Below, one piece after another: positions 1 through 32,041 of a stretch of DNA of 64,000 bases. This DNA comes from an uncultured delta proteobacterium (GTDB lineage: Bacteria; Myxococcota_A; UBA9160; SZUA-336): assembly GCA_963704165.1 (NCBI GenBank), contig CAVPHD010000001.1, positions 32,001-96,000 on the forward strand, given 5' to 3'. The stretch's first letter is position 1. Each line of letters starts with the position of its first letter. The notes beneath the pieces were generated by a model. That model was not told the DNA's origin, made no database searches, and worked only from the letters and a program-made list of their open reading frames with translations. The translations under genes were made by a program, and so were the position numbers.

Positions 1-668
1 CCGGTCAGGAAGATGTGCTCGTCGGTCATGACGCGACCGCGCGAGTGCTCGATCGTGTCGCCGATGGCGAAGTCCTCGAAGTAGGTGTCGGAGTTCGAGA
101 GATGGGCCAGCTCCGCATAGCCGGCGTCCGCGTCGTACGCGGGGAGCTCGAGCTCCACGTCGACGTTCGCGGCAGCAAGCTCACCCTCGTCGAGCGCGGC
201 GTCGAGATCGTGCTTGAAGACCTGGACCTTGCGCTGGTAGGCGAGCACGATCTCGCCGGTCTGCTTGCGTGCGGTGCTCTGGACGTGGACGACACCGAGC
301 TCGGGACGGCTCGACGAGCTCTTCACGCCGAGCACGGTCGTCTCGGTCTCGATCGTGTCGCCGACGTAGACGGCGGCGCCGAACCGCATGTCGATGTACT
401 CGAGGTTCGCTCGCGCGTTCTCCGAGATGTCCTCGACGGTCTGACTGAACGCGACCGCCATCACGAGTCCCGGCGGAATCGGCATCGACGCGTACCCGTA
501 GGCGCGCGCGTAGCGGAGGTTCTTGTGCAGAGGGTTCGCCGTGAACGAGAAGTCGGTGAAGTGTGCGGTGAGGCCTTCGGTCACCGTACGCCCGCCCTTG
601 TGCCGGAAGATCTGTCCGAGGCGGAAGTCCTCGAGGAAGTTTCCGGTTTTCTTGCGAATCAGTGCCAA
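1..668 (-). CDS. Double MaoC/hotdog-fold dehydratase, mesaconyl-CoA hydratase-like (runs off the left edge of the window)
   Basis: Not in the ORF track. Manual minus-strand translation from TTG 668, preceded by AGGAGG, gives MALIRKKTGNFLEDFRLGQIFRHKGGRTVTEG...VEDISENARANLEYIDMRFGAAVYVGDTI...TYFEDFAIGDTIEHSRGRVMT. Two FEDF-x-x-G MaoC N-terminal motifs are present. Confidence 0.85.
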   Translation of the reverse strand, partial: MALIRKKTGNFLEDFRLGQIFRHKGGRTVTEGLTAHFTDFSFTANPLHKNLRYARAYGYASMPIPPGLVMAVAFSQTVEDISENARANLEYIDMRFGAAVYVGDTIETETTVLGVKSSSSRPELGVVHVQSTARKQTGEIVLAYQRKVQVFKHDLDAALDEGELAAANVDVELELPAYDADAGYAELAHLSNSDTYFEDFAIGDTIEHSRGRVMTDEHIFLT

Positions 669-15985: not shown

Positions 15986-16028
15986 CCGCACCTCCGTGTG
16001 CGAGTCTAGCAAGTCGATGAAGACCGGC

Positions 16029-17048
16029 ATGAAGACGCTCGCGATCACGGAGCTGCTCGGCGACGGAATCGGACCCGAGCTGCGCGAGTCGATCCACACG
16101 GTGGCGCACAAGCTGCCGATCGAGTTCGCGTTCGAGTCCATCGACCTCTCTCTCGAACGGCGAGCGAGCGAGGCGGGAGCCGCCTACGACGAGATCGTCA
16201 CATCGCTCGGGCGGACCAAGCTCGGGTTGAAGTACCCGACGGTGACGTCGGGGACGAGTCCGAATGCGGCGCTTCGATCGCGGCTCGGACTCTCGGTGAT
16301 TCACCGTCCCGTGCACTCGATTCCAGGCATCGCCTCGATCTTCAAAGAGAACGTCGCGCTCGACATCGTCCGAGTGGCGACCGGCGGCACCTACGACGAC
16401 CCGGGGCAGCGGATCGGGCAGGACGTCGCGGTGTCGCTGCGCATCATCGAACGGCGGCCGTGCACCGAAGCCGCCCGCTTCGCGTTCGGCTTCGCGCGGC
16501 AGCGCGGCCTCTCCGTGACGTCGTCGTCGAAGCACACCATTCAGCGCGCGACCGACGGCTTCTTCGAGGCGATCGTTCGCGAGGTGGCCGCGGAGTTCCC
16601 CGAAGTGCCCCATCGCGTCGAGCTCTTCGACGCGTTGCTCGCGAAGATCTGCCTGCGTCCGCGCGACTTCTCGGTGGTGCTGACGTTGAACGAGTACGGT
16701 GATTTCCTCTCGGACATGGCGTGTGGACTGATCGGTAGCATGGGCCTGGGGGCGAGCGGGAACTACTCGTTCGCGAAGTCGGGCGAGATCGACGTCGCGA
16801 TCTTCGACCCGGCCGGCGGCACCGCACCCGACATCGCCGGCCGCGGCGTCTGCAATCCGACCGCGGCCCTGCTCGCGTTCGCGCTCCTGCTCGAACACGC
16901 GCAGCACGGCCCGATCGCGGGCGCCCTGCGCGGCGCGGTTTTCTCCACGATCGCCAGCGGCGAGACCACGTGCGACATCGGTGGATCGCTCAGGACGGCC
17001 GATTTCACCGCGCGTGTCTGTGACGCGTTCGCCGTCGCGACTGGCTGA
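16029..17048 (+). CDS. Isocitrate/isopropylmalate dehydrogenase family protein (divergent)
   Basis: GDGIGPE, NAALRSRL, NEYGDFLSD, GLIGSMGLGASGN, GTAPDIAG..CNPTA. Confidence 0.88.
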   Translation: MKTLAITELLGDGIGPELRESIHTVAHKLPIEFAFESIDLSLERRASEAGAAYDEIVTSLGRTKLGLKYPTVTSGTSPNAALRSRLGLSVIHRPVHSIPGIASIFKENVALDIVRVATGGTYDDPGQRIGQDVAVSLRIIERRPCTEAARFAFGFARQRGLSVTSSSKHTIQRATDGFFEAIVREVAAEFPEVPHRVELFDALLAKICLRPRDFSVVLTLNEYGDFLSDMACGLIGSMGLGASGNYSFAKSGEIDVAIFDPAGGTAPDIAGRGVCNPTAALLAFALLLEHAQHGPIAGALRGAVFSTIASGETTCDIGGSLRTADFTARVCDAFAVATG

Positions 17049-17058
17049 GGCCCGGCGC

Positions 17059-18018
17059 GTGCAGATCCGCGAGATGCGGGCCGGCGACCGCGAAGCGGTG
17101 CTCGACCTGCTCGAGCACGCGTTCGCACTCCGCGGGCTCTTCGAGGGCCACATGGACTTCGATCCGACCTTCTCGCACGCGAACATCCTGCTCGCGCTGG
17201 AATCCGGCCGACCGGTCTCGTGCGTGCAGATCTTCGAGAAGCCGATTCTGTTGCGGCGCGAACGCGTCACGCTCGGCGGGATCGGCAGCGTCGCGACCCA
17301 TACGTCCGCGCGCGGGAGAGGTCTCGCATCGGAGCTCCTGCGCGAGGCGATCTCGCGCATGCGCGCGCGGGGCATGGCGCTCTCGCTGCTCTTCGCGAGC
17401 CGATTCGGATTCTACGAACGGCTCGGCTGGCAGCAGATCTCGCTGCGCCTCTTCAAGATCGCGCCACCCGAGAGCGGGGCGGATCCGGACGACGGCACGA
17501 CGCTGCGCGCGTTCCGCCCCGACGATCTCCCGCGCGTCGCGGAGCTCTACGCCACCTACACCGAGCCGCTGTCGGGGCCTACCGTGCGAGATGCGAGCTA
17601 CTGGGCAGGACAGCTGCGCACGGCGGGGACTCCGGAAGAGGATTTCCGCGTCGCCGAACGCGACGGCGAGATCGTCGCGTACGCGCGCGCGGCGTCCTTC
17701 GGCGGGCGCCTGCGGGCGATCGAATACGCGCGTGGCGACGACGGCGCCAGGGCGCTCGCACACTTGCTGGCCGCCCTCGCACCGCAGGGTCGCAACTTCC
17801 CGGTGCCACTCGTTCGCGATCCCGAGCTCGGAGAGGCCCTGCGCGCGCTCGGACTGACGATCTCGCCCGGCGAGGATCCGTCGGCGATGTGGCGAGTGCT
17901 CGACCGGACCGTGCTCGCGCGGATCGCTGGTGCGTCCGAAGGCACACCCGACCGCGTGCTGCTCGAGGCCCTCGTCGGCGGACCGCTCGTCACCTACTGG
18001 CCTTCCGATCGCTTCTGA
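17059..18018 (+). CDS. GNAT N-acetyltransferase (Eis-like tandem GNAT)
   Basis: GGIGSVATHTSARGRGLA, LSLLFA, FYERLGW; a second GNAT-like lobe follows. Confidence 0.85.
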   Translation: MQIREMRAGDREAVLDLLEHAFALRGLFEGHMDFDPTFSHANILLALESGRPVSCVQIFEKPILLRRERVTLGGIGSVATHTSARGRGLASELLREAISRMRARGMALSLLFASRFGFYERLGWQQISLRLFKIAPPESGADPDDGTTLRAFRPDDLPRVAELYATYTEPLSGPTVRDASYWAGQLRTAGTPEEDFRVAERDGEIVAYARAASFGGRLRAIEYARGDDGARALAHLLAALAPQGRNFPVPLVRDPELGEALRALGLTISPGEDPSAMWRVLDRTVLARIAGASEGTPDRVLLEALVGGPLVTYWPSDRF

Positions 18019-18026
18019 GCTTTGCC

Positions 18027-18055
18027 TTGACGCGTGCGACGCACGCCCGTAACGT
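18027..18055 (+). promoter_or_regulatory. Sigma70-type promoter of the leu leader
   Basis: TTGACG-N17-TAACGT, ending 9 nt before the leader GTG. Confidence 0.7.
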
Positions 18056-18064
18056 CGGCGCATC

Positions 18065-18145
18065 GTGATTCACCGGACCCACACCGCGCTGCTTCTTCTC
18101 GGCCTTACCAGGGCGGGCGGGGTCCACCTGGTGCTCAGAGGCTGA
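18065..18145 (+). CDS. Leucine-rich leader peptide MIHRTHTALLLLGLTRAGGVHLVLRG
   Basis: 26-codon uORF with CTG CTT CTT CTC GGC CTT, lying between the promoter and a terminator upstream of leuA. Confidence 0.85.
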   Translation: MIHRTHTALLLLGLTRAGGVHLVLRG

Positions 18146-18169
18146 GCGCCAGGACAGTCGCAAGAAATC

Positions 18170-18208
18170 GGACCTCTCCCGCCGAACCGGCCGGAGGGGT
18201 TTCTTTTT
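18170..18208 (+). terminator. Intrinsic terminator (attenuator) of the leuA leader
   Basis: Stem ACCTCTCC-C-GCC/GAACC/GGC-C-GGAGGGGT followed by TTCTTTTT. Confidence 0.85.
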
Positions 18209-18274
18209 GTCCGCGGGATGTTCCCGCGACCTCCTCCGGCCGCTCGGCGGCCGAGACGTTCCGAGGAGGTCAGC

Positions 18275-19483
18275 ATGAGGATCGGGAACGGTTGCACCGA
18301 AGTGCGTCGCGAGCGTGTCGTCGTCTTCGACACCACGCTGCGGGACGGTGAGCAGGCGGCAGGCGTCTGTTTCTCGAAGGCCGCGAAGCTCGAGATCGCG
18401 AGTCTGCTCGACGAGATGGGCGTCGATGTGATCGAGGCGGGTTTTCCGGGCTCGTCCGTCGGCGAGCACGAAGCCGTGAGCGCGGTCGCGAACGCCGTGA
18501 AGAGAGCGTGCGTCTGCGGCCTCTCTCGCGCGATCCCCGCGGAGGTCGATCGCACCTGGCTCGCGCTCCGCGGTGCGCGAAGCCCGCGGATCCACGTCTT
18601 CCTGTCGAGCTCGGAGATCCACCTCGCCCATCAGCTGAACCGGGGCGCGGACGAGGTCGTCGAGATGGCGCGCGCGGCGGTCGGGCGGGCGCGGACCTAC
18701 ACCCCGGATGTCGAGTTCAGCTGCATGGACGCGACGCGCTCGGAGCCGGAGCTCGTCGCGCGGCTCGTGCGTGCGGCGATCGGCGCGGGCGCGACGACGA
18801 TCAATCTGCCCGACACCGTCGGGTGTGCACGCCCCGATCAGGTCACCGCGATGTTCCGCGAGCTGCGGCGACGCGTGCCGGAGATCCGCGGCGTCACCCT
18901 GTCGTTTCACGGCCAGGACGACCTGGGCTTGGCGACCGCGAACTCGCTGGCTGCGATCGCGGCCGGCGCGCGTCAGGTGGAGCTGGCCGTGAACGGACTC
19001 GGTGAGCGCGCGGGCAACACGGCGTTCGAAGAGGTGGTGATGGCGCTGCGCGTGCACGGCGAGGAGCTCGGGGTCGAGACCGGGGTGGACTCGCGTGGGA
19101 TCTGGGCGGTCTCGCGGGCGGTCGCGCGTCTCTCCGGCTTCGCCGTGCCAGCGAACAAGGCGATCGTCGGCGGAAACGCCTTCCGACACGCCTCGGGAAT
19201 CCACCAGGACGGCGTGCTCAAGCGCCGCGAGACCTACGAGGCGATCGATCCGGCCGAGATCGGGCATCCCGTGGGGACGGAGATCGTGCTCGGCAAGCTC
19301 TCGGGACGCGCGGGATTCGCTTCGCGCGTGCGCGCGCTGGGCCTCGAGCCGTCGGAAGCCGCGCTCGAGCGCGCGTTCGGACGCTTCCAGGCGTTGGCGG
19401 ACGGCCGCGGCGAAGTCGGCGACGAAGACCTGCGCGCTCTCTGTCGCGAGCCCGAGGCGAGTCCGCGGGCGGCGCTCGCTTGA
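18275..19483 (+). CDS. leuA: 2-isopropylmalate synthase, short form without the C-terminal regulatory domain
   Basis: FDTTLRDGEQ, VDVIEAGFP, TTINLPDTVG, NGLGERAGN, NKAIVG.NAF.HASGIHQDGVLK, LGKLSGR. 402 aa, GAGGAGG RBS, upstream Leu attenuator. Confidence 0.85.
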   Translation: MRIGNGCTEVRRERVVVFDTTLRDGEQAAGVCFSKAAKLEIASLLDEMGVDVIEAGFPGSSVGEHEAVSAVANAVKRACVCGLSRAIPAEVDRTWLALRGARSPRIHVFLSSSEIHLAHQLNRGADEVVEMARAAVGRARTYTPDVEFSCMDATRSEPELVARLVRAAIGAGATTINLPDTVGCARPDQVTAMFRELRRRVPEIRGVTLSFHGQDDLGLATANSLAAIAAGARQVELAVNGLGERAGNTAFEEVVMALRVHGEELGVETGVDSRGIWAVSRAVARLSGFAVPANKAIVGGNAFRHASGIHQDGVLKRRETYEAIDPAEIGHPVGTEIVLGKLSGRAGFASRVRALGLEPSEAALERAFGRFQALADGRGEVGDEDLRALCREPEASPRAALA

Positions 19484-30499: not shown

Positions 30500-32041
30500 A
30501 TGGCCCTCCCGCTGATCCAAGTCATGGACACGACGCTTCGCGACGGCGAGCAGACGCCGGGCGTTGCGTACACGCCATCGGAGAAGCTCGAGCTCGCGCG
30601 GCTTCTCCTGGACTCGGTGCGGGTCGATCGGATCGAGATTGCGCAGGTCTTCGTCTCGGAGGGCGAGGTCGAGGCGGTCCGGCGGATTTCGAGCTGGGCG
30701 CGCAAGAACGGCCACGCGGAGAAGAGCGAGATCCTGGGTCTGGTCGATGGTCGACGGTCGGTCGATTGGATCGTCGATCACGGAGCTGGCGCCCTGAACC
30801 TGTTGACGAAGGGCTCGCGCCGGCATTGCGAGGGACAGCTCCGCAAGACCCCCGAGCTGCACTTCAAGGAAATCGCGGAGACCGTCCGCTACGCACGTTC
30901 TCGAAAGCTCGTCGTGAACGTCTACCTCGAGGACTGGTCGCAGGGCGTCCGCGACAGCTTCGACTACGTCTTCGGCCACGTTCAGAACCTGAGCGGCCTG
31001 GGCGTGAAGCGCGTCTACCTTCCAGACACCCTCGGCGTGATGACACCGGACGACGTCACGCGCTACGTCGGCTTGATGACGCGAACCTGGCCGGATGTCC
31101 ACTTCGAGTTCCACGGTCACGGCGACTACGGACTCGCGACGGCGAACTGCCTGGCCGCGATCGCAGCGGGAGCGCGCGGCGTGCACACGAGCGTGAACGG
31201 CATGGGCGAGCGCGCGGGCAACACGCGCCTCGCGGAGGTCGTCGCAGCACTCCACGACTTGACGGATTTCCGAACGGGCATCGACGAACGCCGACTGGTC
31301 GCGGTCTCCGAGATCGTCGCGACGCTCTCGGGCAAGACCGTCGCCGACAACGCCCCCGTCGTCGGCCGCGACGTATTCACGCAGACGGCCGGCATCCACG
31401 CGGACGGGGACGCGAAGGCCGATCTCTACCTGACGCGGCTGTCCCCCGCGCGCTTCGGGCGGCGACGCCGTTACGCGCTCGGCAAGATGGCGGGCAAGGC
31501 CTCGATCGATCAGAACCTGAAGACGCTCGGCATCAAGTTGCCCGCAGAGAAGCGCGACCTGGTGCTTCGACGCATCGTCGAGCTCGGCGACAAGAAGCAC
31601 AACGTCACACCGGAAGATCTGCCGCTGATCATCGCCGACGTCCTGAAGACCCCGAGCGAGTCACTCGTTCGGATCGAGCGCTACGAGTTCCACTCCGAGA
31701 GCGACGGCGAACCGCGAGCGTCCGTGTCGATCCGGTACCGCGGCAAGGTCGAGTCCGCCGCCGCCGCGGGCGACGGCGGCTACGACGCCTTCATGAAGGC
31801 GCTCGCCAAGGCCGTGCGCGCCTTCGACCTGAAGCTGCCCCAGCTGGTCGATTACAAGGTCCGGATCCCGCCCGGCGGGAAGACCGGTGCGCTCGTGGAA
31901 ACCCTGATCAGCTGGCAGACGAGCGCGCGAGCGCAGCCCTTCAACACGATCGGCGTCGATCCGGATCAGCTCGCGGCCGCGGTGATCGCCACAGAGAAGA
32001 TGCTGAACCTGCTCGCTTCCCGGCGGAAGCCGCGACCTTGA
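30500..32041 (+). CDS. cimA: (R)-citramalate synthase, Leptospira/Bacteroides-type, with regulatory domain
   Basis: MDTTLRDGEQT, RVDRIEIA, LNLLTKGS, NVYLEDWS, FHGHGDYGL, VFTQTAGIHADGD, YALGKM, GDGGYDAF, DYKVRIPPGG.T.ALVET. Confidence 0.8.
   Translation: MALPLIQVMDTTLRDGEQTPGVAYTPSEKLELARLLLDSVRVDRIEIAQVFVSEGEVEAVRRISSWARKNGHAEKSEILGLVDGRRSVDWIVDHGAGALNLLTKGSRRHCEGQLRKTPELHFKEIAETVRYARSRKLVVNVYLEDWSQGVRDSFDYVFGHVQNLSGLGVKRVYLPDTLGVMTPDDVTRYVGLMTRTWPDVHFEFHGHGDYGLATANCLAAIAAGARGVHTSVNGMGERAGNTRLAEVVAALHDLTDFRTGIDERRLVAVSEIVATLSGKTVADNAPVVGRDVFTQTAGIHADGDAKADLYLTRLSPARFGRRRRYALGKMAGKASIDQNLKTLGIKLPAEKRDLVLRRIVELGDKKHNVTPEDLPLIIADVLKTPSESLVRIERYEFHSESDGEPRASVSIRYRGKVESAAAAGDGGYDAFMKALAKAVRAFDLKLPQLVDYKVRIPPGGKTGALVETLISWQTSARAQPFNTIGVDPDQLAAAVIATEKMLNLLASRRKPRP

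Follow-up and report, generated by a model that had tools for sequence, protein, structure and literature searches.

The leader of a short leuA gene in the window (the whole 64,000-nucleotide stretch of DNA analysed, from an uncultured delta proteobacterium) is probably a leucine-codon attenuator, in which the 3' arm of a transcription terminator and the leuA ribosome-binding site (RBS) compete for one segment, 18228-18242, so that a single stalled ribosome would control both read-through and translation. This gating of two layers by one ribosome had been proposed in a preliminary description of the window, and it is now supported by cognate-specific covariation among related leaders and by folding predictions. 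At the level of sequence, the leader open reading frame (ORF), the mutually exclusive helices, their conservation and their cognate-specific covariation are established.

In the proposed mechanism, when leucine is plentiful the ribosome would reach the stop codon at 18143, the terminator would form and most transcripts would end at the U-tract; in read-through transcripts, the anti-Shine-Dalgarno (anti-SD) sequence would fold onto the Shine-Dalgarno (SD) sequence of leuA (the OFF fold), resulting in poor translation. When leucine is scarce, the ribosome would pause on the Leu codons, the last of which is the rare CUU at 18104, leaving the RNA free from 18112. The antiterminator would then capture the terminator 5' arm, the polymerase would read through, and the freed 3' arm would bind the switch segment (the ON helix) and open the SD. 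Later, the ribosome would presumably move on and melt the antiterminator, and 18244-18250 could take the distal 5' arm, giving an ON helix of ~19 bp that would keep this transcript translatable, in the manner of a latch. In a leader carrying no ribosome, the Leu-codon run would cover the SD.

Architecture of the leader and its gene

Table 1. Features of the leuA leader, with positions in the window
Feature	Position	Strand	Remarks
sigma70-like promoter (by sequence)	18027-18055	+	TTGACG 18027-18032, spacing 17 nt, TAACGT 18050-18055
Leader peptide ORF	18065-18145	+	26 codons, GTG start, stop at 18143
Protector arm	18075-18080	+	6 bp with 18120-18125; in the MFE of the whole leader
Antiterminator arm	18112-18125	+	18112-18117:18178-18183 and 18119-18125:18170-18176; kept in relatives
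Terminator hairpin and U-tract	18171-18208	+	18171-18184:18188-18201, loop 18185-18187, U-tract 18200-18208
Terminator 3' arm, putative anti-anti-SD	18188-18199	+	pairs with 18231-18242
Linker hairpin closing the ON helix	18212-18228	+	18212-18218:18222-18228
Switch segment	18228-18242	+	anti-SD 18228-18236 overlaps the 3'-arm target 18233-18242
Antisense to the terminator distal 5' arm	18244-18250	+	forms part of the long ON helix with 18179-18185 and part of the nested hairpin in the OFF fold
leuA SD GAGGAGG and flank	18263-18271	+	leuA ATG at 18275
leuA, short 2-isopropylmalate synthase	18275-19483	+	402 aa, without the LeuA allosteric domain

The promoter-like motif matches 8 of 12 consensus positions, which is under the scan cut-off, and a promoter/terminator scan picked up neither a promoter motif nor a terminator, both being marginally outside its rules. 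Its -10 box ends 9 nt ahead of the leader ORF start. Such a motif is present in 53 of the 80 anchored leaders and sits 7-10 nt ahead of an in-frame start in 48 of these 53, so translation of the leader ORF is predicted to begin almost at the 5' end of the mRNA.

Five Leu codons lie within 18089-18106 of the leader ORF, ahead of leuA, as a run at 18089-18100 and a CUU at 18104-18106. This codon is rare (5.4% of Leu codons in a gene set serving as proxy for the genome), and in 73 of 75 leaders it occupies the place nine bases ahead of the Ala codon that is conserved in the antiterminator, under an anchor rule that accepted any Leu codon; from this count, as from the state model below, six long spacers and four leaders without an anchor were excluded. 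When a ribosome holds CUU in its A site, the RNA is free from about P-site +12, so that with CUU 18104 as the A-site codon it would be free from ~18112, the first position of the antiterminator arm.

The antiterminator and the terminator are predicted to be mutually exclusive and are positioned for ribosome control. The terminator hairpin (-21.6 kcal/mol, z -3.1) carries a C-C mismatch at 18180/18192 in its stem and is followed by 8 U in 10 nt, compared with 8-9 U of 10 in its genus. A 12-bp hairpin at 18127-18153 spans the leader stop codon, caps the antiterminator and may act as a pause hairpin; by eye, its arms vary in concert among close relatives. Rfam, with its leader families including the Leu leader, gave 0 matches at gathering, the only others being two chance miRNA-hairpin matches far below it.

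The complementarities first described downstream of the terminator are borne out. The anti-SD 18228-18236, GACCTCCTC, is the exact reverse complement of the SD-bearing 18263-18271, GAGGAGGTC, and 18233-18242 is that of 18188-18197, where G-U pairs lengthen the helix to 12 bp; the nested hairpin is found at 18237-18243:18247-18253, with 7 bp. The linker hairpin said to bring the partners together is also present, but conservation of its structure is weak (median z -0.8; z < -1 in 34 of 78). Moreover, the account of a switch segment complementary to the terminator 3' arm is right but incomplete, since the spacer is also antisense to the loop and the distal 5' arm. The helix that had been overlooked, 18179-18185:18244-18250, comprises 7 bp and stacks on 18233-18242:18188-18197, and the spacer as a whole reads as an imperfect antisense copy of the hairpin 3' arm, loop and distal 5' arm. 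Complements to the own loop are longer than those to the loops of others (p 0.002), and they are plain in the single leaders L012, L026 and L027.

Both folds are far more stable than expected by chance, with z -4.7 for the OFF fold of 18212-18277 and z -6.5 for the ON fold of 18179-18250, and 0 of 200 dinucleotide shuffles as good in either case. Among the 443 SD-upstream regions of the genome, the terminator's own spacer alone binds it at -40.6 kcal/mol, and none of the remaining 442 goes beyond -33.7; this comparison is to be read with the caveat that the 3' arm has GGAGG, with which any anti-SD pairs partly, and that CGGCCG is self-complementary.

The region 18227-18243 looks like a second copy of the terminator 5' arm 18171-18184, and the translational layer may have arisen by local duplication of that arm. 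The 5' arm can itself pair with the SD (18171-18176 with 18266-18271). No further copy of the hairpin was found in the genome: the search gave 1 exact match and, with two mismatches, 4 matches compared with 5 in the control.

The best NCBIfam matches of the leuA product are 2-isopropylmalate synthase models, under their full-length cut-offs, and Pfam gives HMGL-like and HCS_D2 only. A full-length leuA in the same genome has the allosteric domain and is without such a leader; its neighbours are ORFs resembling ilvC, pssA and leuB, as named by eye. The controlled enzyme is thus the short one without the feedback domain, while the full-length enzyme has the domain but not the leader, an arrangement that would explain tight control of expression. 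Since the leader also precedes other leuA types, the missing feedback domain is not the whole reason. At about 30515-31654 of the window (G000:C1:62515-63654), 12 kb downstream, there is a third gene of the isopropylmalate/citramalate synthase family, which is distantly related (37% identity) and without the leader. Directly upstream on the same strand, 15996-18018 holds a gene of the isocitrate/isopropylmalate dehydrogenase family and an Eis-like GNAT acetyltransferase, and, judged by eye, the leader follows the same GNAT gene end in most of the genus members inspected.

Conservation and covariation among related leaders

The first set was drawn from 32 loci, of which 24 bear the hairpin and make up the set, L019 is without the gene 5' end and seven are other paralogues without the hairpin. 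Short leuA itself was found at 25 loci from 61 genomes, 24 with the leader and one without the gene 5' end. With a strict pattern for the whole leader, 20 of 225 genomes of the class were recovered, which is an undercount, and a genome-wide scan for the hairpin gave at least 120 loci, a lower bound on the range of the family. Among the matches listed, together with five loci from the strict pattern, 75 of 125 lie ahead of a leuA, whichever of the two sequence types it has, and most of these are in records that carry Myxococcota, Deltaproteobacteria, Binatia or Anaeromyxobacter in the title. After removal of 50 loci not linked to leuA, 12 duplicates and 2 without a start by the rule, these 125 loci provided a held-out set of 61.

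The spacers range from 49 to 158 nt in length and have little sequence in common, and each nevertheless fits its own hairpin. In the swap test, every hairpin was paired with its own and with others' spacers and scored as a double-centred residual, because raw swap ranks are confounded by hairpin strength. The residual was -2.42 kcal/mol in the first set (n=24, p 5e-5; -2.94 after thinning to n=18) and -2.61 in the held-out set (n=61, 53/61 negative, p 5e-5), where p-values, like those for covariation, are overstated because kin are not independent. With one leader per distinct loop (n=45), it was -3.05. As the 3' arm has GGAGG, the tests were rerun without SD-like letters and the result held (-1.60, p 1.5e-4, in the first set; -2.00 in the held-out set). 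Coding-sequence controls were null in both sets (+0.10, p 0.58, and +0.07).

The SD region shows the same preference for its own spacer (-1.62, 65/85 negative, p 5e-5), and in 59 of 85 leaders the sequence that pairs with the SD shares nucleotides with the 3'-arm site, whereas shuffles give 22.6 +/- 3.6. One 3'-arm position has no partner within the terminator; where its C is replaced by U, the spacer shows the matching replacement of G by A in 4 of 5 leaders, compared with 4 of 80 (Fisher p 1.7e-4); the U/A double change has one or two origins only, on a tree of rough support, and four leaders have the spacer A without the matching arm U. There are also poor fits: L010 and L015 did no better than shuffles, and L007 and L014 are without a switch in the RBS-opening test described below. 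Orthologous leaders had been named at the outset as the place to look for an absence of the complementarities, and both pairings turned out to be conserved and cognate-specific there, in 24 leaders of the first set and 61 of the held-out set.

These comparisons bear on the reading that the complementarities are a by-product without a regulatory role, left by an old duplication of the 5' arm or by GC-rich or SD-like sequence. The likeness of 18227-18243 to the terminator 5' arm and the GGAGG and palindrome of the 3' arm would suit it, whereas spacers that diverge this much stay cognate-specific even when SD-like letters are removed, and the coding controls are null. The by-product reading is largely refuted by the swap tests and can be considered very improbable.

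Predicted switching of the two layers

The claim that the antiterminator takes the 5' arm and that the 3' arm then frees the RBS agrees with the predicted cost of opening the RBS as well as with the covariation. In the first set (n=24), the median cost was 13.0 kcal/mol with the terminator forced and 5.3 with the lower 5' arm held. The difference was 6.4 kcal/mol, against 0.55 with shuffled spacers, and exceeded the shuffles in 22 of 24 leaders. The held-out set, from which six long spacers were excluded, behaved likewise (12.5 vs 5.9 kcal/mol; 54 of 55 above shuffles). The OFF cost as such is not extreme: among 322 control genes, 45% have a cost of at least 9.0 kcal/mol and 16.5% one of at least 12.2.

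In a state model of the window leader, a ribosome at the stop codon gives the terminator P 0.99 and the anti-SD:SD pairing P 0.92, with the SD paired at 0.99. With the ribosome on CUU 18104, the antiterminator is predicted at P 0.98-0.99 and the terminator, at the U-tract, at 0.018, while the 3' arm pairs with the anti-SD at P 0.71 (all ten pairs), anti-SD:SD falls to P 0.07 and the SD is unpaired at 0.76-0.84. The outcome is sensitive to the ribosome footprint, since 3 nt more of cover brings the terminator back at the U-tract (P 0.999). In the ribosome-free fold, the SD is paired to the Leu codons (P 0.84); the Leu-codon run 18091-18102 can pair with the SD region 18261-18270, a pairing predicted to be dominant only without a ribosome.

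Unforced equilibrium folding with a ribosome mask gave the ON helix in just 34 of 75 leaders with the ribosome at CUU (9 of 75 at the stop). At the U-tract, the terminator was still dominant in 50 of 75 leaders and the flip was supported in 25 of 75, and in an earlier unconstrained mask test of 23 leaders, opening of the SD did not change consistently. Given this limited flipping at equilibrium, a co-transcriptional order of folding must be assumed.

In the window leader, the distal helix is practically absent from all three equilibrium states (P 0.00-0.01) and competes with the antiterminator, so that it is likely to be used after the ribosome has melted the antiterminator. The 18244-18250 antisense is possibly an ON latch, to judge by its covariation. 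The same antisense narrows the margin of the second layer. It had been expected that leaky transcripts with an intact terminator would stay silent, and the predicted pairing of the SD is in line with this, but the margin is thin because the spacer is antisense to the loop and distal 5' arm as well: when the RNA is folded from the start of the hairpin only, the forced terminator is within 0.5 kcal/mol of the free ensemble and P(ON helix) is 0.51.

It is conceivable, though doubtful, that the downstream antisense is only a post-read-through latch or an aid to the antiterminator, keeping the terminator unfolded and opening the SD on any full-length transcript, and that the OFF hairpin represses nothing. 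The long ON helix is indeed very stable alone (-51 kcal/mol) and near-isoenergetic with the OFF fold when the antiterminator is absent (median P(ON helix) 0.47, 24 leaders), and in the vmlR leader of Bacillus subtilis, as far as the accessible text of PMC9226507 goes, disruption of the SD-sequestering hairpin SL-4 did not raise uninduced expression. Repression by the OFF fold is favoured by the anti-SD:SD pairing, which is itself cognate-specific, by the opening cost under a forced terminator, higher than in shuffles in 23 of 24 leaders, and by the terminator state, which dominates in 65 of 75 leaders with the ribosome at the stop.

Lineage variants and known systems

The U-tract varies widely among these leaders. 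In the 10 nt after the hairpin motif, at least 7 U are present in 21 of 85 leaders and at most 3 in 11 of 85. In Anaeromyxobacteraceae, the hairpin is matched in 13 of 92 genomes, with 12 matches preceding leuA; all 12 of these leaders have 0-3 U after the hairpin, i.e. no U-tract, and all 12 have kept the anti-SD, with a predicted drop in RBS-opening cost of 2.5-11.3 kcal/mol. Folding predictions suggest that the element likely acts on translation alone in this family, where Rho-dependent or U-less termination may be the alternative. Extended to all leaders, such a view would make the element mainly translational, its hairpin holding the anti-anti-SD and terminating little, and the U-tract a lineage-specific addition. 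The low share of U-rich leaders and the retention of the switch in the U-poor Anaeromyxobacteraceae are consistent with it, but the window leader and its genus, with 8-9 U of 10, have a standard intrinsic terminator, so this view is unlikely and the dual reading fits the window leader better.

The scaffold is also seen ahead of other genes. In L093 (match 501-527, minus strand), an Ile/Leu-rich leader with the same scaffold lies ahead of a Glu/Leu/Phe/Val dehydrogenase (PF02812), and in L067 (match 501-527, minus strand), the leader contains two Trp codons and the gene behind it encodes an MFS transporter (PF07690). L155 has the scaffold and a U-tract behind a Thr/Met-containing leader, and the first 60 residues of its next ORF are without a Pfam match. 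L093 and L143 share an assembly prefix, which places two scaffold leaders in one genome, one for the amino-acid dehydrogenase and one for leuA. Tentatively, these leaders might make up an RNA family, so far uncatalogued, that is spread over Myxococcota and Binatia and has the translational relay as its conserved core, with termination as an option. The loop-antisense latch would then hold a transcript ON once the ribosome has left, giving each mRNA a record of the leucine level under which it was made, and the same scaffold would serve further genes with different sensing codons. As part of the same tentative reading, the hairpin would be a terminator in some lineages and a mere holder of the anti-anti-SD in Anaeromyxobacteraceae. 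If true, this would provide a natural series linking transcriptional and translational attenuation within an amino-acid pathway.

A literature search for this leader, or for a dual switch in an amino-acid leader-peptide attenuator, found neither described. These leaders could already be listed in the attenuator survey that Lopatovskaya, Seliverstov and Lyubetsky published in 2010, which reportedly includes delta-proteobacteria. In addition, ermK of Bacillus licheniformis is said, in work attributed to Choi et al. in 1997, to combine transcriptional and translational attenuation in response to a macrolide signal. In the available text of PMC5418344, ermK is listed as transcriptional, and a survey from 2010 (PMC2965389, in its accessible part) treats as hypothetical the idea that a terminator covering the RBS attenuates transcription and translation in concert.

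By analogy, the two-layer logic supported here is not new as logic, its precedents being the Bacillus resistance leaders vmlR and tlrB. For vmlR, antitermination has been proposed to let a competing pairing disrupt SL-4 in read-through transcripts (Takada et al. 2022, PMC9226507). According to the accessible part of this source, vmlR shares with the window leader an upstream ORF (uORF), an anti-antiterminator, an antiterminator, an intrinsic terminator and the downstream SL-4; the likeness is one of layout, the phylum differs, and the signal there is antibiotic-induced stalling, whereas here it would be a shortage of aminoacyl-tRNA. SL-4 covers the SD only partly, its mutation gave a moderate defect in induction with the leak unchanged, and neither a terminator-loop antisense nor a terminator-less variant is mentioned for vmlR in that part of the text (PMC9226507). 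In tlrB (yxjB) of B. subtilis, one stalled ribosome likewise relieves both termination and SD sequestration, and read-through transcripts are translationally repressed, but tlrB is without an antiterminator, the ribosome blocks both hairpins directly, the signal is tylosin and a NusG pause takes part, as the accessible text of PMC6851288 has it. The window leader does have an SD-sequestering hairpin 3' of the terminator, and release of the SD by antitermination is predicted and agrees with covariation. It has no antibiotic arrest peptide before a resistance gene; its leader peptide is Leu-rich and its gene encodes a 2-isopropylmalate synthase. The sequence comparisons support placing it in a covarying family of dual-layer leucine attenuators with terminator-less members, and not among the vmlR/tlrB resistance leaders.

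The classical attenuators, exemplified by trpL and leuL of E. coli, are by description transcription-only. The window leader differs from them in its second layer and, moreover, is predicted to be nearly leaderless and is without an Rfam match. It shares with them a uORF of Leu codons, an antiterminator and terminator predicted to be exclusive, and a GC-rich hairpin with a U-tract, the last of which is absent from 12 of 12 Anaeromyxobacteraceae homologues. A cognate-codon leader peptide, a protector, an antiterminator and a terminator with a U-tract make up the classical layout, whose general scheme is summarised in 10.1101/834739. The actinobacterial LEU element (Seliverstov et al. 2005, PMC1262725) and the mycobacterial polycysteine leaderless sORFs (10.1101/834739) are alike in that a uORF of amino-acid codons controls a downstream SD. 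In both, as the accessible parts of these sources describe them, the sensing codons are themselves the anti-SD and a terminator is absent, whereas the window leader has a terminator, at 18171-18208, and a separate anti-SD that would be freed by a relay from antiterminator to 5' arm, 3' arm and anti-SD. A stem of the LEU type, between the Leu run and the SD, is predicted for the window leader solely when no ribosome is present, and any CUN codon inherently resembles an anti-SD.

In the usual teaching, attenuators with an amino-acid leader peptide switch transcription, and those acting on translation, represented by the LEU element and the polycysteine sORFs, form a design apart. The conserved scaffold described here appears to combine the two modes by using the terminator arm a second time in a relay, and its natural variants keep or lose the U-tract. 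It has therefore become a testable question what a second layer contributes to an attenuator, and how one mode of attenuation becomes the other.
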